Shown: positions 3,843 to 63,067, numbered from the stretch's first letter. The stretch: DNA of 64,000 nucleotides from Gammaproteobacteria bacterium (GCA_021648485.1 JAKISS010000010.1:485-64484); one strand, 5' to 3'. Program-made: numbers and translations. Notes: generated by a model from the sequence alone, not told the origin.

Positions 3843-5615
3843 ATGAAACAACAGCTTACCTCCCTGATTCAAGCCGCCATTGATACACTGAAATCTCAAG
3901 ACGTGTTACCTGCGGATCTGTCACCGAATATCCAGATTGACCGCACCCGCGATGCGAGTCACGGCGATTACGCCTGCAATATTGCGCTGATGCTGGCTAA
4001 ATCGGTGCGCTGCAAGCCTCGCGACCTGGCAGAGAAAATTGTTGCCGCATTGCCAGCGGCTGATCAGGTCGCAAAAGTCGACATTGCCGGGCCGGGTTTT
4101 ATTAATTTTACACTCACTGATGCGGCGGCTTTCGCTGTGGTGGAGGCGGTGCTGGACGCTGGCGAGGCCTACGGGCGCTCCACTATCGGTGACGACAAAT
4201 TCGTGCAAGTGGAGTTTGTGTCTGCCAATCCCACAGGCCCGTTGCATGTAGGCCACGGCCGTGGTGCAGCTTATGGTGCGGCCGTGGCGGATTTGCTGGT
4301 GGCCGTGGGTTTTAAGGTGCATCGCGAATACTACGTCAATGATGCCGGGCGGCAAATGGATATTCTTGCTGCCAGTGTATGGCTACGTTATCTCGACCTG
4401 TGTGGTGAAAATGCCAATAATGAGTTGCCGTTTCCCGTTAACGGCTACAAAGGCGATTATGTGTGGGATATCGCCGCCACGTTACAGCGTGAACACGGTG
4501 ATGCCTTTCGGCATGCGGCACAAATTGTGTTGACGAATCTGCCAGCCGATGAAATTGACGGTGGCGATAAAGAACAGTACATCGATGCGGTGATTAATCG
4601 CGCAAAAGAATTGTTGGGTGATGCGGCTTTTCGCACAGTGTTTGATGCAGGGCTCAACAGCATTCTCGATGATATCCGTCACGACCTTGAAGGTTTTGGT
4701 GTGGTCTACGAGGAATGGTTTTCGGAACGTTCTCTTACCGAATCGGGTGCGGTGGCGCGTGCTACTGAGCGTCTCAAAAATGCCGGTCATTTGTACGAAA
4801 AAGACGGCGCATGGTGGTTTCGTTCTACTGATTTTGGGGACGAAAAAGACCGCGTAGTGGTGCGTGACAACGGCCAAACCACCTATTTTGCATCAGACAT
4901 TGCGTATCATATGCAAAAGCTGGAGCGTGGTTTTGACCGTGTTATCGACGTGTGGGGAGCCGATCATCACGGTTATGTGCCGCGCGTTAAAGCTGCACTC
5001 ACTGCGTTGGGCGATGATGCCGATAAACTTGACGTGCTGCTGGTGCAGTTTGCAATTTTGTATCGTGGTGGCGAGAAGGCACAGATGTCTACCCGTTCCG
5101 GTGAATTTGTTACCTTACGTGAATTGCGCGAAGAAGTGGGCGACGATGCGGCACGGTTTTTCTACGTGATGCGCAAGTGCGAACAGCATATGGATTTTGA
5201 TCTCGATCTTGCCAAGTCTCAGAGCAGTGACAACCCGGTGTATTATATTCAATATGCTCACGCGCGAATCTGTAGCGTATTCCGCCAGCTGGCTGAAAAA
5301 AACCTGACTCATAATAGTGATAATGGTCTTTCCAGTTTGGCAGTATTAAACGAAATACATGAACAAGCTCTGTTGACCAGGCTTTCACGTTACCCGGAAG
5401 TGGTGGAGGCCGCAGCGCTGAATCATGAGCCGCATCAGTTGGCGCATTTTCTGCGCGAGCTAGCCAATGATTTTCACACGTATTACAACGCCCACCCGTT
5501 TTTGGTCGATGAGGCCGCCGTGCGTGATGCGCGCCTGTGTTTGATTAAGGCGACACGACAGGTGCTTGCTAACGGTTTGGGGCTGTTGGCCGTGTCGGCA
5601 CCGGAAACCATGTAA
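3843..5615 (+). CDS. argS: Arginine--tRNA ligase
   Basis: Class I signatures ([16 protein letters not shown] and MSTRSG, a KMSKS-like motif). 590 aa. Confidence 0.95.
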
Positions 5616-5630
5616 AGCACTGTCCTGGTT

Positions 5631-6203
5631 ATGGCCAAAGATTACAAAAATACTTCCAGACCCAAAACCAAGCCTCCCAAGCCAGCGCCGGGTTGGGTGT
5701 GGATGCTCGGTGGTTTGCTGATTGGCTTGTTGGTCGCGCTGCTGGTGTATCTCAGCGATGATTTGCAAACGGGCAGTGAGCGTGCAACGCCAGCGCCTGT
5801 GGTGGAAAAGAGTCAGGCTGCCCCCAAACAAGCCACAATTAATAACAAACCGAGGGAACAAACAGACAAAAAACCGCGTTTTGACTTTTATAATTTGTTG
5901 CCGGAAATGGAGGTATTTATTCCGCCACAAGAATTAGCGACGGAACGCGAACGCAAAACGGCGGATTCCATGACCTATTATTTGCAAGCGGGCTCTTTCC
6001 GCCGCATGGAAGATGCTGACCGTATGCGAGCCCAGCTGGCATTAAATAACATTGAATCTCATATTCAGCGCGTTACCATTAATAACAGTCAGACTTGGTA
6101 CAGGGTGCGAGTTGGTCCCTTTCAGAGCGCGCGCAAAATGGACGTAGTGCGTAACCGCCTGCGGGCACAATCCATAGACCCGATTGTGCTCAAGGTTAAA
6201 TAA
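5631..6203 (+). CDS. SPOR domain protein (FtsN/DedD-like cell-division peptidoglycan binder)
   Basis: N-terminal TM helix, a proline- and charge-rich linker, and a C-terminal SPOR-like YYLQAGSFRRMEDADRMRAQL...WYRVRVGPF. Confidence 0.75.
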   Translation: MAKDYKNTSRPKTKPPKPAPGWVWMLGGLLIGLLVALLVYLSDDLQTGSERATPAPVVEKSQAAPKQATINNKPREQTDKKPRFDFYNLLPEMEVFIPPQELATERERKTADSMTYYLQAGSFRRMEDADRMRAQLALNNIESHIQRVTINNSQTWYRVRVGPFQSARKMDVVRNRLRAQSIDPIVLKVK

Positions 6204-6410
6204 GTTCTTTTTATGCGCTTTCACAGTTGACCCTCAGGGTCAGCTTCTGACACTCTGTGACACTCGTCACGGTACGGTGAGTCGGCCAGTTTTACACGGC
6301 AAATCCGAGGTTTTTGCTGTAAACCTTTCGCCTCCTCTGCCGTTATACTTTGCAGGGAAAGTCGCTGACTTTGCTGCCTTTTTAGCCTGCCAGAACCGAT
6401 GATTAAATAA

Positions 6411-9400
6411 ATGAGCGCTGCCAAACAACTGCTGGATCACAAGTTGCTGAGATCGTTGTCGCCGCTGTGTGACCTGTCCCCCGATATGCTGGCTGAACTC
6501 AGTGATAAATCACGAGTGACCCAGGTGGTGACTGGTGCAACAATTTTCAAACAGGGTGAGCGGGATCATCGCACCCTGTACCTTGTGGCTGGCAAGCTGG
6601 AGCTTACTGATGCCTCGGGAAAAACCACAAAGTTAGTCGCTAACAGCAAGCAGGCACGCCAACCGCTGGATTCCATATCCCCACACACCGTTACCGCTGT
6701 TGCGAAGACACCGGTTTCCCTGCTGAACATCGATACCGACCTGCTTGAAATGTTGCTCAACTGGGGTGGAAAACAACAATCTTACGAAGTATCCAGTCTG
6801 GCAGTGGAGGAAGAAGATACCGACTGGATGAGTCGCTTCCTGCAATCCAAGGTCTTCCTCAAACTGCGCGCGGAAAACATCCAGACCATGATGATGCGCA
6901 TGGAAGAAATCAAGGTGCGCGCAAATACCGTGGTGATCAATCAGGACGACGATGACGACAACTATTACATCATTGCCAAAGGAAAGGCGAAAGTTGCCCG
7001 CCGGGTAGCCCCGGGTGCGCCGCTGATGAAGCTGGCGATTTTGACACCAGGCACCGGTTTTGGTGAAGAGGCGCTGATCAGCAATGGCAAGCGTAATGCC
7101 TCGGTGACCATGATGGAAGATGGTACGCTGATGCGACTGTCAAAAGAGGATTTTATCAGTCTGCTGGTCACCCCTATTTTGCAATATGTATCTTTTGATG
7201 AAGCCAAAGCCATGACAGGCCCGGATGTGCAATGGCTGGATGTGCGCAAACTGGCTGAATACTCCCGGGGCAGTCTGCCCGGCGCACGCAATATCCAGTT
7301 AGCTGAAATGCGCTTGCAACTGCGCAAGCTTAACAAATTACACAAATACATTGTTTTCAGTGATGGCGGCAGTCGTGCGGCGGCGGCTGTATTTTTGCTT
7401 AACCAGTATGGTCTGGATGCTTTTGTATTACGTGATGGCTTGAATGCTGTTTCGGCGTCTGCACTGGAAAAAAATGCGAGCAAATCACCTGCACAAACCA
7501 GCATACAGGCAACACCGCAAGACGTACCGACTCTGAAACCAGAGGATAATGTTGTCAATCTGCATGGCGAAGCCACAACCAGCGTGGAAAGCGATGGTCG
7601 CGTGGAAGCGCTGATGAGCAAGGCCAAGCAGCGCGTACAACAGGAAATGCAGCGCACCCAGGCGGCAGACAACGCCCGCAAACAAGCATTGGCCGAAGTA
7701 GCGAGGCTCAAAGAAGAAGCAGCCATTGCACGAAAAAAAGCCGAAGACGAAGCACGGCATGCAGCCGACCATGCGCGCAGCGAGGCAGAACGAGCCGCTG
7801 CACAAAAACGGGCCGATGATCTGGCCGCTGAACAGGCAGAGCGTGAAGCTGCCGTGCAGCGGGCAGAAGCAGAAACCGCGCGGGCTGAACAGGCTATGCA
7901 GGCACAAAAAAAAGCCGAAGAGGAAATTGAGCGCCTCAAACAGGATGCCGCCCAAGCACGTCGTGATATGGAAGCCCAGGCACGTCAATCAGCGGATACT
8001 GCGAAAAAAGAGACGGAAGACGAAATTATTCGTCTCAAGGCCGACGCTGAAATGGCACGTCGGCGCGTTGAAGAACAAGCCAGACTGGCCGCTGATGCAG
8101 CGCGTTCCGAAACAGAACGCAAGATGGCTCAGCAGCGTGCTGAAGAGGTCAGCCGCCATCAACAAGAAGCTGAAAGCGCTTTGCAAAAAGCCGAAATTGA
8201 GGCTATGCGCGCGCAACAGGCCGAAGCCGCACGGCAACAGGCCGAAGACGAAGCCGAGCGCATGCGCACCCGTGCTGAAGAAACCCAGCGCGAAATGGAA
8301 GAGCAAGCGCGTTTAGCCGCAGATCAGGCGCGTTCCGAAGCCGAGCGTGATGCTGCCCGGCAACGCGCCGAGGATCTGGCCGAACAACAGGAAGAACTGG
8401 AAGATGCGGTAAGCAAGGCTGAATCAGAAGCTGCGCGCGCGCAGGCAGCAGAAAGTGAGGTTGAGCGCCTGACAAAACTGGCAGACGAGGCGCGACTTCA
8501 GGCTGAAGCGCAGGCGCGCATGGCAGCGGATCAAGCGCGCAGTGAGGCAGAGCGCGAAATGGCTGCACAACGTGCGCAGGAAATGGGGCGCTTGCAGGCC
8601 GAGCGGGAAGAAATGGCAAGAAGGGCGGAAGATGAGGCATGTCGAACCCGGGCTGCTGAAGACGCTCGTTTACAAGCTGAAGCCGAAATTCAGCGGTTGA
8701 AGGTAGATGCTGAAGTAGCACGCATGCAGTTGGAAGAGCAGGCGCAACGGGTTGCTGATGCTGCACGCTCTGATGCAGAACGCGAAGCCATGCGCGCGCA
8801 GGCCGCCGAAGAAGCCCGCCTACAGGCGGTGCATGAACTGGAGCGCCTGGAAGCTGAAACAGAGCAAACACGTCTGGCCGCTGAGGCACAGGCGCGCTTG
8901 GCTGCTGATGCTGCACGTAGCGAAGCAGAGCGTGCGGCGGCGAGCCTGCGAGCCGAAGAACTGGCTCAGCAACAGGCTCAGCTGGAAGAAATTACCCGTC
9001 GTGCTGAGGAAGAAGCAACCCGTGCAGAAGAAGCCGATGCCGCACGGCAGCGGGCTGAAAATGAAATTATCCGTCGTCAGGCCGAGGCGGAAGAAGCCGA
9101 ACGGCGTGCAGCCGAAGAATCGAATCGTGCCCGGGAGGCTGAAACAGCCCGCCAGCAAATGGAAAAAGAAATGGCGCAGTTGCGAGCCGAGGCAGCGGCA
9201 GCCCGCGAGCAAGTGGAAAAACAGGCACGATTGTTTGCGGCCGCACAAAAGATTGAGGCAGAAGAGGCGCAGAAAAACAATTTGGAGGCCATGGATGTCG
9301 AGCGTAAAAAACGTGAAACTGCCGAGGCGGTTGCACAACAACAGACTCAACAACAAAGAGAAACCGAAATATTAGCTGAACAGGAGCGTTTGTCTAACGC

Positions 9401-56313: not shown

Positions 56314-57264
56314 GTGTCAGATCAGTTTTTTGAAAAACCAATCTTGAACTCGCCATATGAGTATCCAAATACTCACCGGGAGCTTGATGAATCGGGACAG
56401 CCGACACAGAAAGTCGTCAATGCCCGTCGTAGGGCAGAGTTTATAACGCCTATTCCCAGACCCCGAAAGCGAAAAGGGCCGGTTGAACAGGCGCAAATGG
56501 ACTTAGGGACAACCATTGGCCCGGAGGGTGATTCGCAGCGATACGACCCTACGCCGATTATTAACCAGCTCCGTAGCCATGTAGATGAGTGGCGTAGATT
56601 GAAAAACCCAAATGACTGGGGAGTGACGCCGGAGACAGCGAGGCTTCTGCAACATTGGCGGCACCACAGCTTTAACGAAATACGGCCATTTTTCTGCCAG
56701 ATAGAAGCCGTGGAAGTGGCTATATGGCTTACCGAAGTCGCACCTAAAATAGGCAAGGCAGGCAAAATATTCCTGAATCACCTCGATAGCGCCAACAATG
56801 ATGCAAACCCAGAATTGATGAGACTGGCATTAAAACTAGCCACCGGGGCAGGTAAGACCACTGTCATGGCGATGATTATCGCCTGGCAGACAATCAACTC
56901 GGTGCGCCGCTCCAACAGTAAAAAGTACTCCCGGGGGTTTCTTATTGTTGCACCAGGGTTAACGATTAAAGACCGGCTTCGTGTCTTGTTGCCCAACGAT
57001 CCAGACAGCTACTACGCCAGCCGCGAGCTGGTGCCCAACGATATGTTGCCTGATCTGGAAAAGGCCAAAGATGACATTATTCCCCTTGAGTCGCGCTTGT
57101 CCTCTGTATCAGACGATACGGTTGACCTTGAAGAGGTTTACAATACTGAACGACATTTGCTCTATGTTGCCTGCACTCGTGCGAGGGATCATTTGTTAGT
57201 GACGGGTGTTGAGCCTGGATCTGAGTTTTTGGATGATCTGAAGGTATTGGCTAGTGATGAGTGA
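56314..57264 (+). CDS. Chimeric ORF, probably a pseudogene: type III restriction Res/DEAD-box helicase N-terminal ~250 aa fused in frame to a UvrD-like helicase C-terminal remnant
   Basis: FFEKPILNSPYEYP...LATGAGKTTVMA (helicase motif I, nt ~56836-56862) with no later helicase motifs. From ~57070 the sequence switches to ...ERHLLYVACTRARDHLLV (SF1 motif VI-like). Confidence 0.65.
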   Translation: MSDQFFEKPILNSPYEYPNTHRELDESGQPTQKVVNARRRAEFITPIPRPRKRKGPVEQAQMDLGTTIGPEGDSQRYDPTPIINQLRSHVDEWRRLKNPNDWGVTPETARLLQHWRHHSFNEIRPFFCQIEAVEVAIWLTEVAPKIGKAGKIFLNHLDSANNDANPELMRLALKLATGAGKTTVMAMIIAWQTINSVRRSNSKKYSRGFLIVAPGLTIKDRLRVLLPNDPDSYYASRELVPNDMLPDLEKAKDDIIPLESRLSSVSDDTVDLEEVYNTERHLLYVACTRARDHLLVTGVEPGSEFLDDLKVLASDE

Positions 57265-58942
57265 CACGATGACAGAGCAGGAACTTCATGATTACCTGCA
57301 AACTCATTACTCCACAGAGAATGTGAGCTGTGAGCACAAAGCATTTTCTCGCCTTCGCCATGCGGTGTCGGGTAAAGCGGGTGATGACGTGATTTCCTAT
57401 GTGTCAGCGCTGGCTAATATGGAGGGTGGTCAGCTTATCTTCGGTGTTGAGGATGGCACGCTTAATGTTCTGGGCATTGCTGATTGCCACGATTTCACTC
57501 CGGAAAATCTGCCACATCGTTTGATCGGTAACTGTGTCAATCTAAACAGTGAGGGGCTGCGGGTTGAGGTCTTCATCACTCAGGACTCGGGCAAGCGGGT
57601 GTGGGTGCTTCATGTACCCAAGCATCAGCCGAGGAAGCCGGTGTTTGCTCATCGTAAGGGGTGGCAGCGTAGCGGTGATAGTTTGATCGAATTACGGCCT
57701 GAGCGAGAAGCGGTTATTTTGGCTGAAGCGGTTTCTGCCAATGAGGATTGGTCAATTCAGGTGGTGGAAGATGCAACCTTGGATGATCTTTCAGCAGAGG
57801 CAATTACTGCTGCCCGAAATCACTTCAAAAAGAAAAATGCTACGTTAGCTGCGGAGGTGGATAGGTGGAGTGATGAGGTTTTTCTAAACAAGGCTAAGCT
57901 GACGATTCAGGGCAAGATAACGCGGGCCGCCTTGGTGCTGCTGGGTAAGCCGGAGTCTGATCACTTTTTAACACCTGCGGTGGTTACCCTAAGCTGGATT
58001 GTAAAGGATCGGGATGGTCTGGAAGAGGACTATGAGCATTTTTCTGCACCGCTAATTTTGGCGGTGGACAAGCTCTTTGCCCGTATCCGTAATCTTAAAT
58101 ATCGCTATATGGCAGATAGCACGCTGTTTCCAGAAGAGGTGAATAAATACGATACCTGGGTTATTCGTGAGGCTCTACATAATTGCATCGCTCATCAGGA
58201 CTATCAATTAGGCGCGCGAGTGGTGGTTGTGGAATTTCCAGACCGGCTGGTATTTTCCAACAAAGGGGGCTTTATCCCTGGTGATGTGGAACGGGTGATT
58301 AGCCTGGATGCCCCTGAACCTTACTACCGTAACCGTTTTTTGGCCCAGGCAATGGTGAGCCTGAATATGATTGATACGGTGGGTAGTGGTATCAAGAAAA
58401 TGTACGTTACGCAGCGTCGTCGTTTCTTTCCCATGCCTGATTACCGTATTGAGCCAGATGGCGTGATGGTGACTATCTATGGCCGTATCGTGGACGAACG
58501 CTTCTCAAAGCTGCTGGCGGCAGATCCCGAGTTGTTGCTACATGATGTGATTTTGTTGGACAAAGTGCAGAAGGGCTATCAGTTAAGCGATGATGAAATA
58601 AAGACCCTGCGGGATAAAAAGCTGATTGAGGGGCGTAAACCCAATCTGTTTGTGTCGGCCAAAGTGGCGAGTGCAACGGGACAAAAGGCGGCTTACACCA
58701 AGCAAAAGGCCTTGGATCAGCAATATTATTTAGACATGATTCTTAAGCTCATTGAGCAGCATGGGGAAGTTGGCCGAGCAGATATTGATGAGCTGTTGTG
58801 GAAAATGCTTCCCGATTTTTTGGATGACAAACAGCGCAAAATCAAAATCAATAATCTTCTGAGCGAGCTTTCAGTACGGCAGGGGAAAATTCGCAATATT
58901 GGCACACGTGGCCAGCCGAAGTGGGTGTTGATAGGGAGCTAA
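57257..58942 (+). CDS. AlbA_2 (Schlafen-type) + HATPase_c_4 + C-terminal wHTH protein ('RecG-like ATP-binding / putative DNA-binding' family)
   Basis: N-terminal ENVSCEHKAF...ISYVSALANMEGGQLIFGVEDGTLNVLGI. Central REALHNCIAHQDYQLGARVVVVEFPDRLVFSNKGGF. Start could be 57254, 57257 or 57269. Confidence 0.75.
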   Translation: MSDTMTEQELHDYLQTHYSTENVSCEHKAFSRLRHAVSGKAGDDVISYVSALANMEGGQLIFGVEDGTLNVLGIADCHDFTPENLPHRLIGNCVNLNSEGLRVEVFITQDSGKRVWVLHVPKHQPRKPVFAHRKGWQRSGDSLIELRPEREAVILAEAVSANEDWSIQVVEDATLDDLSAEAITAARNHFKKKNATLAAEVDRWSDEVFLNKAKLTIQGKITRAALVLLGKPESDHFLTPAVVTLSWIVKDRDGLEEDYEHFSAPLILAVDKLFARIRNLKYRYMADSTLFPEEVNKYDTWVIREALHNCIAHQDYQLGARVVVVEFPDRLVFSNKGGFIPGDVERVISLDAPEPYYRNRFLAQAMVSLNMIDTVGSGIKKMYVTQRRRFFPMPDYRIEPDGVMVTIYGRIVDERFSKLLAADPELLLHDVILLDKVQKGYQLSDDEIKTLRDKKLIEGRKPNLFVSAKVASATGQKAAYTKQKALDQQYYLDMILKLIEQHGEVGRADIDELLWKMLPDFLDDKQRKIKINNLLSELSVRQGKIRNIGTRGQPKWVLIGS

Positions 58943-59224: not shown

Positions 59225-61474
59225 TTAATCAGCGCTGTTCACCTCTTGCTCGATTTCATCAATAGCCTGCATCACAATCCCTTTGATCTCATTCAAAAAC
59301 TTAAACACCAGTTTGTCACCTCGAGCGTCGGGAATGGGGACATATTCAGCGTAAATGCTGCTGATGCGTTGGCGGCGCTTGAAGGTGCTGCCTGCGCCGC
59401 GTAGCGCATAGGCTTCATGCCAGGCCGGTTGTGCCAGCTCCCTGAGTCGGTGTGAGCTGAGCTCAGGGATTTTCTGCGTGACGGCGGTTTTGATGCGGTC
59501 GATGGTTTCGCGCTTTTGTTCTTCTGTCGCTTGGCCGCTCCACTCAATCGGGTTTTCCAAAAAACGCGAGATGGCTGCTGACAGGGCAGTAATAAGATTG
59601 GACGCTGGGCGTAGATAAAAGCCATCATCCCAGCCTTCGGCATAGCGTCGGCTTAGAGCTTTAATGCTTTGCCATGGGCTAGGGGTAAATTCAGGGTGCT
59701 GGGCCAAACCCAGTCTGCTATTCCATTGCTGGCGGAAGTCATGGCTAGCCTCTTGTATAGCGAGTACCAGGTTGTCCGGGCTGTATTTGGGAAAGGATAC
59801 CGGCTCAAAGACCGGTGGTTGGGCAGCGGCCAGATGTGTCAGCAGTTTGTTGAGTTCTGGTATGGCGGGTTTGGGATCGGCTTTGTCGATTCTACCCACA
59901 TAAAAAGTGCTGCTTTCCAGGTGGTGCAAGAGATGGCGTGCCGCTTCGGTGGAGACGTTTTTTGCCAGCTGGTTTTCTGCCACATTGCGCACCCCTCCGA
60001 AGATATGATCGAGCTTGGCTTGGCCTTTAAGGTTGTCGCCCTTTACTGCATCCATATGTGTGAATACCACGGCCAGCTTTTGGGTGTGGCCGGTATTGAC
60101 GATACCCTCAAGCGCTTTGCCAGCGGCGAAGTTAGTCATGCTGTTCTTGGCGCTGTCCACCAGCAGGATGACATCGGTGCTATGCAGCAAGGCTAGTGTT
60201 TGTTCGGGAAGATCCGCTGTAGTGCCTGCTTTATGCATTAAGCCTTCTGTGTCGATCAGCACCAGCTTGGCTGGGTTGGCGGCCCAGTTGGGCTTGAAGG
60301 GGCCGGATACTCGCATGCCATTGACCAGCGGGGTGAGCAGTTTGCCCCAGGATTGAATGGCGATGCCGGAGAAAAAGCGTACAGATTTGAGGAATTGCTC
60401 GCGTTGTATTGCGGGTGTTTCAATGTGCCAGGCGCGTGGCCAGCCAGTGGTGGTTTTCTCGAATTTGCCGTTGGGAGTTAAGTCGAATTTGCTGCGGATT
60501 TCATCAAGGATGTCGGAGGTGATTTCCAGAAATGCATCTGAAACGATGGCTTCTTCTTCAACTAGGTCCATGGCGGCATTGCGATCTTCTGACGACATCT
60601 CTGACAGCGGGCCTTGCTGATGCTCAACGGCTGCTTTTTTCTCTTGCGTAAGTGTCATGATGCGGTTGATATACCCGGCAAGAAGTTGCTGCGAGCGTGC
60701 TTTATCTTCGTCGGTGGGTGTGATGTCAGCCTGATTGTCTACGGCTGACTCGGTCTCTTCATCATCATAATCATAGGGATCGATCTCTTCTGCTTCGCTG
60801 GGCAGTTCGCCCAAAATATATTTGAGCCTGAAGCGCATATCACTCTTTTCCAGTAGGGTTTCCGCCACCCTCTGTTCGCTACTGTCGATGGCTTTTACCA
60901 GGGCGGCAGAGAGCGACTCTTCTATCTCAAAACGGGTTTCGTGTTCCGACATGAAGGTTACAACGGCCTGGTAGTGCTCACTATCGGAGACGGTAATTTC
61001 TGTGGGAAAGGTGGTGGTTCTGTTCACGGATGTGGATGGAAAGCGCTCCTTTTCGGGGTGGGTGCCAATCAACTGCCGCAATAAGGTGGTTTTACCCGCA
61101 CCCGGCACGCCTAACAATGCCACACTGGAATAGCCCTGGTTGTGGTCGGGTAGCGGTAAAAGTTTATCTCTCAGTTGGGTGGCGGATTGAGTGCGGGGCG
61201 CGATCTCTCCATAGAAGATTTCTACCACTTTGGCATCAAACTGCTTGGCGGCATCGGTTTGTGAGCCTATCGACCACAGCGATTCATCTGATAGCAGTTG
61301 GTTGAGTTGTGCGGTTAGACGCTGGGCTTCCTTTTCGTCGCACGTGCCTAGTCCTTTGCGGGTTTTCTTGCCGGGCTTGTTGTTGTTATCTGTTTTCAGT
61401 GGATGGCGGAATTCGACCAGCCAGGACTTGCGACCGGGGTTTTTTTTGGCAGTTGCAGTGTAACGCTGGGTCAT
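59225..61474 (-). CDS. Orphan 749-aa P-loop GTPase-like protein with split G domain and integrase-arm-like N-terminus
   Basis: G1 GVPGAGKTT (nt ~61088-61111), G3 LIDTEGL (~60243-60263), G4-like FTHMD (~60052-60066), with a ~270-aa acidic helical insert between G1/G2 and G3. Start set at ATG 61474, with GGAG 7 nt upstream. Confidence 0.7.
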   Translation of the reverse strand: MTQRYTATAKKNPGRKSWLVEFRHPLKTDNNNKPGKKTRKGLGTCDEKEAQRLTAQLNQLLSDESLWSIGSQTDAAKQFDAKVVEIFYGEIAPRTQSATQLRDKLLPLPDHNQGYSSVALLGVPGAGKTTLLRQLIGTHPEKERFPSTSVNRTTTFPTEITVSDSEHYQAVVTFMSEHETRFEIEESLSAALVKAIDSSEQRVAETLLEKSDMRFRLKYILGELPSEAEEIDPYDYDDEETESAVDNQADITPTDEDKARSQQLLAGYINRIMTLTQEKKAAVEHQQGPLSEMSSEDRNAAMDLVEEEAIVSDAFLEITSDILDEIRSKFDLTPNGKFEKTTTGWPRAWHIETPAIQREQFLKSVRFFSGIAIQSWGKLLTPLVNGMRVSGPFKPNWAANPAKLVLIDTEGLMHKAGTTADLPEQTLALLHSTDVILLVDSAKNSMTNFAAGKALEGIVNTGHTQKLAVVFTHMDAVKGDNLKGQAKLDHIFGGVRNVAENQLAKNVSTEAARHLLHHLESSTFYVGRIDKADPKPAIPELNKLLTHLAAAQPPVFEPVSFPKYSPDNLVLAIQEASHDFRQQWNSRLGLAQHPEFTPSPWQSIKALSRRYAEGWDDGFYLRPASNLITALSAAISRFLENPIEWSGQATEEQKRETIDRIKTAVTQKIPELSSHRLRELAQPAWHEAYALRGAGSTFKRRQRISSIYAEYVPIPDARGDKLVFKFLNEIKGIVMQAIDEIEQEVNSAD

Positions 61475-61508
61475 GGTCTGGCTCCAATTGATGTTCCGTG
61501 GTGTTCCA

Positions 61509-61536
61509 ATAGTAGCCCCTTGGCTGGGGGTGTCAA
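61509..61536 (-). promoter_or_regulatory. Sigma70-type promoter of the GTPase gene
   Basis: The minus strand reads TTGACA-16 nt-TACTAT, ending ~35 nt upstream of ATG 61474. Confidence 0.45.
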
Positions 61537-62374
61537 GCCTTACCGGAACACCTTGGAACATCACTGCGTGATGACGAAGGTTTGCCTCTAGCAAGCAGGG
61601 GATGAACTCTGTTGGGCTATAGTTATTGTTGCTGACAGTGTCAACGGCTCCCGAAGCGAATAGCTGCACAGTGTCCGCACTGCGAACACCTGCAACTCAT
61701 GTCCTTATGCAACGAAAAAGTGTTAGCACTGCTAACGTTTCTTAAAAACCATTCCATAATTCAAAAATACCCGCGAAAAGAGGCCTGTTGGGGTAAGTTT
61801 GCCGGGGAGTTACATTGTTACGCAACTGCTATACTGAACTTGTTCTAACCGCTATCGCTACGGTCAATTAGCGATACCCTTGCCGAGTAATCGGCACCCA
61901 GCGCCTCTTCGATCCGATTCAGGTGCGACAGTCTTTAGACTGCGGGTCATGCCTTAACACTTTCTTTATCAATATTCGGAGTCAGCTCCGAGCACCCTCA
62001 CGACTGATTACTTTGATCAATTCATCTTTATAGCTGCGCCAGATTGTCTGTTGCAGCATCAAATCACTGCGCCCGTCTTTGCTGGAGGCGCGTAGCGTGT
62101 CCACAGAGACGGGCGTCATGAGTATGGCGCAATGTCCTATCAATACAGGCTTTCTCGGCGTGCCTTGCCGATGTAAAAGCCCACAAAACCTCTGAATACG
62201 GCGGCAGGTTTATAATCTGCAACAGCCAGTACCTTACCTGCGATCTGTGCAATGCAGATCGTGCAGAGGTGCCATGTATTCGGGATTGAACTGCCCTGCT
62301 GCTATCAAGCAGCCCCTAGTCATGGGCAATGACCAAGGCGCGACCGGCGCTCCTCTGGTGCAGACTTATATAGC

Positions 62375-63067
62375 GTGGCGAAAGCCGAGTTTATCGCCAT
62401 GCGGCTAGCCGCACTGGCTGGGCTGCATGTTGCATCGGTTACGATGATGCAAGCCACCAATAAAGATGTATTGCTGATCAAGCGTTTTGATCGTATTCAT
62501 GCGACGAAAGGATGGCAGTGCAAAGCCATGGTTTCCGGCCTGACTTTGTTGAGCCTGGATGAGATGATGGCACGCTATGCCAGTTATGAGGATTTAGCCG
62601 AAATTATTCGCTATCGCTTCAGGAGTGCTTTCTCGACATTGCAGGAATTGTTTTCCCGCCTGGTATTTAATATTTTGTGCGGGAATACAGACGATCACGC
62701 CCGCAATTATGCTGCTTTTTGGGATGGAGAAATGCTCTCCCTTACGCCAGCCTATGATATTTGCCCACAAGTGTGTATGGGCAATGAGGCCATGCTGATT
62801 TCGGGTGATAACCGGATGAGCCAGCTTACCGTTTGCCTGGATGCGGCAGCGCATTTTCGACTCTCTCGTGAAGAAGCTCGCAAAATTATCGAGCATCAAA
62901 TTGAGACTATTGAAACAAACTGGGAGCTCGTGTGCGATGAAGCAAATTTAAGTAAAACGGATCGCGCCCTGTTCTGGAAGCGGCAATTTCTTAACCCATT
63001 TGCGCTGCAAGGGTTTGCTGAATCTGAAAACAAACACGCCCCCAGAGACGCTGTCCAAGATAGATGA
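62375..63067 (+). pseudogene. hipA: HipA-family kinase toxin, C-terminal half only
   Basis: LLIKRFDR...GNTDDHARNYAAFWDG...TPAYDI (catalytic loop at nt ~62681-62707). The N-terminal ~180-200 aa and the P-loop region are missing or frameshifted. No hipB found. Confidence 0.7.

Follow-up and report, generated by a model that had tools for sequence, protein, structure and literature searches.

A horizontally spread family of stand-alone dynamin-like GTPases with an integrase-arm-like N-terminal domain and a conserved four-site operator

What does a large GTPase gene without a partner do in an otherwise decayed islet of a bacterial chromosome, and what is the role of the DNA sites that bracket its promoter? 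These questions are raised by a 749-codon gene on the minus strand of a 64,000-nucleotide (nt) stretch of DNA from a Gammaproteobacteria bacterium (GCA_021648485.1 JAKISS010000010.1:485-64484; the window hereafter means this whole stretch), in which it lies between metH and a glycosyltransferase gene. An earlier interpretation made from the DNA alone (the sequence-only reading) had described it as an orphan GTPase with a split G domain, linked to DNA through its N-terminus. Sequence comparisons indicate that it belongs to a large, unnamed, horizontally spread family of stand-alone GTPases, and that four conserved DNA sites around its promoter are probably bound by the protein's own N-terminal domain (N-domain). 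The overall explanation that we consider best, and hold with somewhat better than even confidence, is that of a mobile, stand-alone dynamin-like GTPase that is autorepressed via its N-domain and may serve in defense.

The gene and its four-site operator

The longest reading of the open reading frame (ORF) begins with a GTG at 61669 and gives 814 amino acids (aa), and the ATG at 61474 gives 749 aa. All 40 aligned homologs begin at a methionine equivalent to this ATG and, therefore, the 749-aa start is taken as correct; the upper boundary of 61536 in the sequence-only reading is an edge of the -35 hexamer and not a start codon. When compared with four relatives, the gene showed a ratio of nonsynonymous to synonymous substitution rates (dN/dS) of 0.07-0.13; it is intact and under purifying selection.

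The sigma-70-type promoter and the Shine-Dalgarno site that had been read from the sequence were located upstream of this start codon (Table 1). Although a consensus scan for the promoter was not significant by itself (3 sites against 2.8 expected), the -35/-10 pair was kept at the same place in ~50 homologous loci, and GGAG or GAGG occupied the same position in most homologous leaders. A comparison of leaders, i.e. the 220 bp 5' of the start codon, from 54 loci showed that the promoter is framed by two pairs of half-sites, and the layout of upstream pair (U1-U2), -35, -10 and downstream pair (D1-D2) was found in 53 of the 54 close loci. In consensus, the order is GATGTTCC-NN-G(A/G)TGTTCC, 7-9 nt, TTGACA, 16-18 nt, a TATAAT-like hexamer, usually 1 nt, the inverted half-sites GGAACA(C/T)C-NN-GGAACATC, 9-16 nt including GGAG, and ATG. 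The half-site bases were 90-100% conserved and the spacers varied freely. The 8-bp half-site is given here as GATGTTCC.

U1-U2 consists of direct half-sites with a 10-bp period, 8 nt 5' of the -35 hexamer, and in 48 of 53 loci TTGAC(A/G/T/C) stands at a constant distance from this pair. D1-D2 begins 1 nt past the -10 hexamer in the window and in most loci; it therefore covers the expected transcription start, a repressor position. Within the 64 kb of the window, the half-site pair matched at these two places only, even when two mismatches were allowed. In the loci that we fetched, such pairs were confined to leaders, except for one extra copy in L058-L063. This copy, at 7107-7124 of L058, lies ~850 bp upstream of the GTPase gene and adjoins a gene for a ParE-like toxin, and may have been left behind by the leader of another cassette.

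Divergent relatives (30-45% identity), which come from metagenome contigs and plasmids, retain the layout with an altered half-site, GTTGTNCC. Most of these relatives have half-sites of the form GTTGT(T/A/G)CC, and where the outer sites of a locus differ, the inner ones frequently differ with them. The plasmid sources of these divergent operators are Azospirillum, Bradyrhizobium, Agrobacterium and Caballeronia, and the GTTGTTCC half-site class is exemplified by Azospirillum plasmid NZ_CP022368 and Caballeronia plasmid NZ_CP049160. On the Azospirillum plasmid (L078), a small DUF4258 gene at 4560-4990 is inserted between the operator/promoter and the GTPase gene to form a two-gene operon, and three downstream half-sites (GGAACAAC x3, 10-bp period) are present, not two. 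A Methylobacter metagenome-assembled genome (MAG) provides the sole N-domain-encoding locus with no detectable upstream pair (L051, upstream of 10001), and its downstream pair is degenerate (AGAACACTTTAACACATC).

A subset of the family, ~650-690 aa long, lacks residues 1-95. Half-sites were present in 62 of the 63 loci that encode the N-domain and in none of the five N-less loci, which span at least three lineages. The N-less state was confirmed on the DNA of a metagenome contig (L068), three syntenic genomes (L074-L076) and a Rhodococcus plasmid (L077). A metagenome scan with the N-less alignment yielded seven loci, most of which turned out to have an in-frame coding region for the N-domain farther upstream; gene prediction may thus have truncated some of the database entries that look N-less. 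The three syntenic genomes, of ~3 Mb each, carry the N-less gene at 6001-8070 (679-690 aa) directly after a CoA_transf_3 gene and, in two of the three, before purL; the copies are 53-91% identical to the N-less query P0193 and operator sites are absent. Because the GTPase gene is the only gene common to all loci, binding of the sites by its own N-domain would be the most economical explanation, and the four-site operator is the strongest evidence that this domain may bind DNA.

A split G domain joined to an integrase-arm-like domain

The motifs of the protein and its Pfam score place it in the dynamin/TRAFAC class of large GTPases. Dynamin_N (PF00350) scored 33.3 bits against a cut-off of 27, with positions 1-88 of its 168 falling on residues 118-212, and MMR_HSR1 scored 32.4 bits against a cut-off of 21.9. 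Profiles of AIG1, SRP54, LeoA and Der matched with their G3-G4 halves, on residues 400-486. Since the two profile halves map to these separate segments, the G domain is truly split, as the sequence-only reading had it; the insert, of ~190-250 residues, lies between G2 and G3. The motifs G1, switch I, G3, VILLVDSA (residues 435-442) and G4, all of which had been picked out before, were present and invariant or nearly so in 40 homologs. Residues 148-154 had a low predicted local distance difference test score (pLDDT) in the model, as expected of a mobile switch.

The full-length AlphaFold model (pLDDT 78, predicted template modeling score 0.75) contained ~190 helical residues after the G domain, which agrees with the helical C-terminus proposed earlier. 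The insert was modeled as an acidic disordered loop (225-250), three long helices (255-332), a beta hairpin or small sheet and a helix. The acidic loop, at 60725-60802 of the window, has an invariant D232-P233-Y234 and a net charge of -12; residues 1-95, at +6, are the sole positively charged part of the protein. That the conserved loop might mimic DNA, or compete with it, for the basic N-domain is pure speculation. The C-terminal region (561-749) has invariant residues at W601-Q602, K605, R610, R676, W685, G693 and R700, and it gave zero matches in any profile library. Pfam, NCBIfam, PADLOC and PHROGs contained no nuclease, TIR or SIR2 domain match for the protein, and no transmembrane-like hydrophobic stretch was found, the maximum 19-residue Kyte-Doolittle mean being 1.02 (an amphipathic paddle would escape this measure); here, too, the sequence-only reading stood. 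The top PDB fold matches were Drp1, SynDLP, MxA, LeoA, Fzo1/mitofusin, a DynA-like pair, Toc34 and aIF2-gamma, and the G domain taken alone matched Toc34 and aIF2-gamma with probability up to 0.99. A search of PDB sequences with the full-family profile returned P-loop and G3 fragments of Der, Era and ABC-F proteins only.

Modeled alone with AlphaFold2 (AF2), the N-domain had a pLDDT of 89.8, with strands at 7-11, 18-28 and 34-41 and a helix at 47-62. Its proposed likeness to integrase arm domains drew weak, independent support from Pfam, hhalign and a Foldseek search of BFVD, but not from the PDB fold search described below. DUF6538 (PF20172) was matched by 11 of 38 family N-domains, with a best E of 2.7e-4, and Arm-DNA-bind_3 (PF13356) by one of the 38, below its cut-off. 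An hhalign comparison of the N-domain with a DUF6538 alignment gave a probability of 79% and an E of 1.5e-5 over 32 columns, with the matched core F-R-x-x-x-P ... R-x-LGT-x-D-x-x-EA; this DUF6538 alignment was shallow, its 67-aa query having yielded 9 close Mesorhizobium sequences. The two top-ranked BFVD matches were phage integrases (probabilities 0.84 and 0.96, E 0.11-0.16). A hidden Markov model (HMM) of the N-domain, run against all ORFs of the fetched loci, missed the DUF6538 integrase that adjoins the GTPase gene in a Mesorhizobium locus (L064), and the two are linked by profile-profile comparison only.

The arm-binding N-domain of lambda Int consists of three antiparallel strands followed by a helix (PMC2831311), and the GTPase N-domain has the same order of elements in ~60 residues. 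With the Mesorhizobium integrase it shares W/Y-x-F-R-x-x-x-P ... K-x-x-R-x-LGT-x-D-x-x-EA, and the candidate sites are direct repeats one helical turn apart, an arrangement that is frequent in arm sites. Unlike tyrosine integrases, the GTPase lacks a core-binding or catalytic domain, and all of its integrase-type Pfam scores are below cut-off. A match to Phage_integrase (PF00589) is absent and the N-domain is followed by the GTPase, not by a recombinase core, as the sequence-only reading had noted. Furthermore, unlike arm sites, the candidate sites bracket a promoter and do not flank a recombination core. Altogether, these comparisons suggest that the GTPase N-domain is probably a relative of the integrase N-domain. 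No paper mentioning DUF6538 was found in our literature search.

Table 1. Coordinates of the operator, the GTPase gene, its domains and motifs, and neighboring ORFs in the window
Feature	Coordinates	Strand	Description	Basis
Upstream operator pair U1-U2	61545..61562	minus	GATGTTCC-AA-GGTGTTCC	pattern match
Sigma-70-type promoter	61509..61536	minus	TTGACA (61536-61531), 16 nt, TACTAT (61514-61509)	consensus scan
Downstream operator pair D1-D2	61490..61507	minus	GGAACACC-AC-GGAACATC	inverted copy of U2-U1
Shine-Dalgarno site	61482..61485	minus	GGAG, 7 nt 5' of ATG	sequence
GTPase coding sequence	59225..61474	minus	749 aa; stop codon 59225-59227	ORF list, Dynamin_N/MMR_HSR1 matches, dN/dS
N-domain	61190..61474	minus	residues 1-95; three-stranded beta sheet and helix, two short helices; DUF6538/integrase-arm-like	AF2, profiles
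G1/P-loop	61088..61111	minus	G122-VPGAG-K128-T129; site of all P-loop profile matches	invariant in 40 homologs
Switch I/G2	61004..61033	minus	TSVNRTTTFP, residues 148-157; T153-T155 invariant	alignment
Insert splitting the G domain	60278..60838	minus	~residues 213-399	HMM coordinates, model secondary structure, charge
G3 (DxxG)	60242..60253	minus	D408-T-E-G411; invariant	aligned with Der G3 in PDB profile search
G4-like motif	60050..60061	minus	T472-H-M-D475, end of strand 467-472	T472, M474, D475 invariant
All-helical C-terminal region	59228..59794	minus	residues 561-749	model secondary structure, alignment
Chimeric ORF	56314-57264	plus	316 aa; restriction-enzyme N-fragment fused to UvrD_C tail	
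AlbA_2/HATPase_c_4 ORF	57254-58942	plus	Schlafen/AlbA_2; 562 aa, uninterrupted	domain matches
HipA_C-only fragment	62375-63067	plus	230 aa; N-terminal Couple_hipA part missing	profile match

Spread, neighborhood and relation to known systems

A word-indexed search returned 1054 homologs, the best 120 of which were 59-96% identical and nearly all ~750 aa long. An exhaustive profile search gave 1364 clusters at 50% identity with E<=1e-3, of which 464 had E<=1e-30, and a search from a divergent N-less member added 3396 further matches. Full-length relatives number in the thousands and come from at least eight phyla. The term orphan in the sequence-only reading is thus apt as regards the missing partner gene but not as regards uniqueness, there being >1000 close and >3000 more distant homologs. 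A pattern scan of one genome per species (185,579 genomes) found 52 loci, and the hosts were Gamma-, Beta- and Alphaproteobacteria, Acidobacteriota, Binatia, Chloroflexota, Smithella, cyanobacteria and others. The GTPase frame is split into at least two pieces by a frameshift or stop codon in four of these 52 loci (L021, L046, L055 and L056), which are either decaying copies or MAG assembly errors. Relatives are named 'hypothetical', 'dynamin family protein', 'miro-like' or 'EutP (predicted NTPase)' in the databases. None of Pfam, NCBIfam, PADLOC and PHROGs holds a model that covers the family beyond partial G-domain matches.

The closest loci (94%, 91% and 83% nucleotide identity) have other genomic settings, with DUF484 and xerC on either side or an integrase fragment as neighbor, and their homology to the window extends from the stop codon to 90-157 bp 5' of the ATG. 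Because homology ends at the gene borders although the loci sit in different places, the traveling unit appears to be the leader plus the ORF. Relatives were found in 11 of 72,556 plasmid records and in none of 50,697 phage records, and PHROGs was also blank. When neighboring ORFs were called and clustered, no cluster was common to the 52 species-level loci beyond near-identical genomes, and, on each side, every Pfam family was limited to at most 4 of the 122 flanking ORFs. A second dynamin gene was not found in any locus, nor was Dynamin_N among the flanking-ORF families listed. The genes upstream of the N-less Rhodococcus plasmid copies were common only to two near-identical plasmids.

The homologs were found repeatedly among defense and mobile genes, the types overall being BREX, Druantia, AbiE, restriction-modification and integrases. 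For example, the Mesorhizobium gene directly follows a DUF6538 + Phage_integrase gene and precedes SNF2 and DndB, and on a 1.4-Mb contig the GTPase gene lies between AbiEi/AbiEii and PLD/SNF2/NOV_C genes. Another copy shares an islet with Fic and ParDE, between mnmG and a P-type ATPase gene; the Cupriavidus gene adjoins MTaX1, helicase, SMC and methyltransferase genes, and the Caballeronia plasmid gene adjoins patatin and nucleotidyltransferase genes. In a subset of loci, strong PADLOC matches among the three neighbors on either side were to DruE (E 1e-303), BrxA/B/C, PbeA, type I methyltransferases, MADS proteins, AbiEii, PD-T7-5 and several PDC candidates.

The window islet itself is decayed, as the sequence-only reading had recognized. 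Residues 6-252 of its chimeric ORF correspond to positions 1-236 of the 970 in a BPTD_3080-family restriction endonuclease profile (E 2.6e-97, a match that falls well short of the full-length cut-off), and a match to the C-terminal tails of GajB and UvrD-like helicases covers its final ~40 residues; the ORF looks like a deletion that fused two decayed defense genes. Its end is overlapped by 11 nt by the AlbA_2/HATPase_c_4 ORF, which is convergent with the GTPase gene and is weakly matched by a pAgo-associated PADLOC model (E 5e-9). This uninterrupted ORF may be a second intact gene of the islet. The GTPase gene is indeed intact, as had been claimed, but it does not appear to be the only large gene of the islet with an unbroken frame. 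Only short ORFs were found in the ~700 bp before the HipA_C fragment (61670-62375). The Halioglobus locus L001/L007, which is 87% identical, carries hipA at full length (407 aa), at a distance of 3.4 kb from the GTPase gene. No tRNA genes were detected in the window by ARAGORN and no Rfam family reached its gathering score. Islet-flanking direct repeats were not found in the window either; since both tRNA genes and such repeats are absent, there is no sign of an attachment (att) site.

We also compared the protein with known systems. Like members of the dynamin superfamily (BDLP, DynA, LeoA and SynDLP), it is large, has G1-G4 in the dynamin/TRAFAC order and has helical regions outside the G domain. 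Unlike them, it has a G domain split by an insert, with a Dynamin_N match over half of the profile, and it carries an N-terminal domain of DNA-binding type together with its own operator sites, as a single gene and not a tandem pair. A further difference is that no paddle or transmembrane element was found, the test for pleckstrin-homology (PH), paddle and transmembrane elements being hydropathy-based and weak. In a two-gene dynamin-like defense system, the dynamin-like genes lie in defense islands and P-loop mutants abolish defense (10.1101/2022.05.11.491447). B. subtilis DynA is cited in the same source as a housekeeping dynamin with a phage phenotype (cited in 10.1101/2022.05.11.491447).

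Several named families were considered and rejected, which leaves the protein outside the named defense families, where the sequence-only reading had placed it. The PADLOC LeoA model PDLC03839 scored 19 bits (E 1.5e-4) on residues 400-486, and no stretch passes alone. LeoA/LeoBC resembles the present family as a dynamin-like GTPase found among defense genes; it differs as an operon of two dynamin-like genes. The LeoA and LeoBC system of Millman et al. 2022 was later named Eleos. Membership in it was rejected, the LeoA match being insignificant and an adjacent second dynamin-like gene being absent from the 52 loci. For STAND/AVAST NTPases, nSTAND_NTPase5 scored 22 bits (cut-off 34), NB-ARC 14.3 and NACHT 13.2, all on the P-loop only. 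For ABC-type defense ATPases (PtuA, OLD and GajA), PtuA scored 16.9 bits and ABC_tran 21 (cut-off 25), on the N-terminal half only, and this type was ruled out because the G3-G4 half aligns with the Der and AIG1 GTPases instead. Judged from the profiles searched, the protein presents a known enzyme class under a new architecture and a putative, testable regulatory circuit, and no named family covers this architecture. The titles and abstracts returned by our literature search did not describe a single-gene dynamin-like protein with a DNA-binding domain.

A proposed circuit and competing explanations

We propose that two N-domains of one dimer would bind two direct half-sites one helical turn apart, and that two such dimers, as a dimer of dimers, would fill the upstream and downstream pairs. 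Occupancy of the downstream pair would block initiation, such that the protein would repress its own synthesis. GTP binding and hydrolysis in the split G domain could drive dimerization or assembly via the helical insert and the C-terminal bundle, and, like other dynamin-like proteins, the GTPase might then serve as a switch or as a machine whose assembly is driven by GTP. More speculatively, the genomic context suggests that such a machine may serve in defense against phage or mobile elements, and autorepression might buffer the amount of a possibly harmful protein and keep it low; the effector act could be membrane remodeling, sequestration of an invader component or another. The DNA link proposed in the sequence-only reading draws its strongest support from the four-site operator, which points to autoregulation and not to anchoring on target DNA. 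We regard an autoregulated stand-alone GTPase as quite likely, and give a defense role slightly less than an even chance. A more specific version, to which we give only tentative credence and which we consider rather unlikely as a whole, is a single-gene immune or conflict module in which a dynamin-like GTPase captured an integrase arm domain and became a self-repressing, DNA-parked sentinel that would be trigger-released or GTP-assembled against phage or invading DNA.

Several observations weigh against the proposal of an autorepressed GTPase serving in defense. DNA binding by the N-domain is suggested solely by the co-occurrence of sites and domain, and the five N-less loci represent only ~3 independent events. 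The synteny of CoA-transferase, GTPase and purL genes in L074-L076, kept despite divergence, resembles vertical, housekeeping-like retention. N-domain positions 10 (K/R versus T/S/A) and 21 (E/D/A versus I/S/T), both located in beta strands, separate the half-site classes over 58 loci; they are a lead but are not put forward as specificity determinants, since L082, on a plasmid, is an exception and the two classes divide along phylogenetic lines. The DUF6538 score of the window protein is 11.9 bits against a cut-off of 27 and all family matches are below cut-off, and Foldseek of the N-domain against the PDB returned nothing (best E 0.38, integrases absent). Fold matches of the full-length model were weak, with a best E of 2e-3 and template modeling scores of <=0.3, and neither an effector domain nor a membrane-binding element was found. 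Finally, many neighbors are housekeeping genes at islet borders, and the defense role is speculative, being drawn from the neighborhood alone.

The strongest competitor, in our view still improbable, is a housekeeping-type bacterial dynamin-like protein for membrane or envelope maintenance, like DynA or BDLP, that is autoregulated and often sits in variable regions. The dynamin-like G domain and helical regions, the strong purifying selection, the N-less clade kept between the CoA-transferase gene and purL at 53-91% identity, and the phage phenotype cited for housekeeping DynA of B. subtilis would all fit this explanation. However, the spread of the family is patchy (52 loci in 185,579 species genomes, yet at least eight phyla), the neighbors differ in nearly every locus, and a 94%-identical copy lies elsewhere in the genome with homology ending at the gene borders. 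A hydrophobic paddle or transmembrane stretch was not found in the protein, and a tandem second dynamin gene is absent.

Less probable again is a module for the maintenance or segregation of mobile elements, in which, by analogy, the four repeats would be centromere-like and the DNA-binding GTPase would serve as both adaptor and motor. In ParR/parC, the repeats flank the promoter and also give autorepression, and TubZRC is analogous. The present family would resemble ParR/parC in having repeats on both sides of the promoter of the proposed binder's gene, which would predict autorepression; an NTPase that is expected to self-assemble, and copies found by integrases or relaxases or on plasmids, would also suit such a module. 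It differs in having four half-sites and not ten repeats, in occupying chromosomal islets and not plasmids, and in having the binder fused to the NTPase. The four half-sites stand at exact operator positions, most copies are in small chromosomal islets that lack replication and transfer genes, and the N-less Rhodococcus plasmid forms lack such sites. A plasmid partition system (ParMRC/TubZRC) is made less likely by the low number of relatives in plasmid records (11) and their absence from phage records.

We assign a similarly low probability to the possibility that another factor, i.e., a host regulator or DUF6538-type integrases acting in trans, binds the sites, and that the N-domain serves for protein contact or for invader DNA. 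This would be compatible with the indirect nature of the case for N-domain binding, with the Mesorhizobium gene lying directly after a DUF6538-carrying integrase, and with the GTTC direct repeats, which recall the alphaproteobacterial SOS (LexA) box, described in the literature as a GTTC-N7-GTTC direct repeat. However, the sites occur across Gamma-, Beta- and Alphaproteobacteria, Acidobacteriota, Chloroflexota, Binatia, cyanobacteria and Smithella with the GTPase as the sole common gene, they are missing from all five N-less loci, and integrases are adjacent in only ~3 of 45 loci. The SOS box was ruled out: the spacing is GTTC-N6-GTTC (10-bp period) in all loci, the conserved half-site extends past GTTC, and most hosts are not Alphaproteobacteria.

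The orphaned sensor that the sequence-only reading had entertained, with an effector partner lost as the islet decayed, is consistent with the restriction enzyme/UvrD_C fusion and the HipA_C fragment in the window, but it is very improbable and was abandoned, as a partner is conserved in none of ~60 loci, intact defense islands included, and genes upstream of the Rhodococcus plasmid copies are shared by two near-identical plasmids only.

For the preferred explanation of an autorepressed, stand-alone GTPase, the family offers a testable circuit of four 8-bp sites and a 95-residue domain in one gene, and the N-less members, which have neither the domain nor the sites, form a natural control clade. 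The circuit would give DUF6538 a function, namely the recognition of direct repeats spaced one helical turn apart. Dynamin-like GTPases in bacterial defense are known only as the two-gene system and the housekeeping DynA; if the sentinel version were true, the protein would be the first of the dynamin family with sequence-specific DNA binding. The family is a candidate for catalogs of defense systems, and may provide a compact model for what a bacterial dynamin-like protein senses and does.

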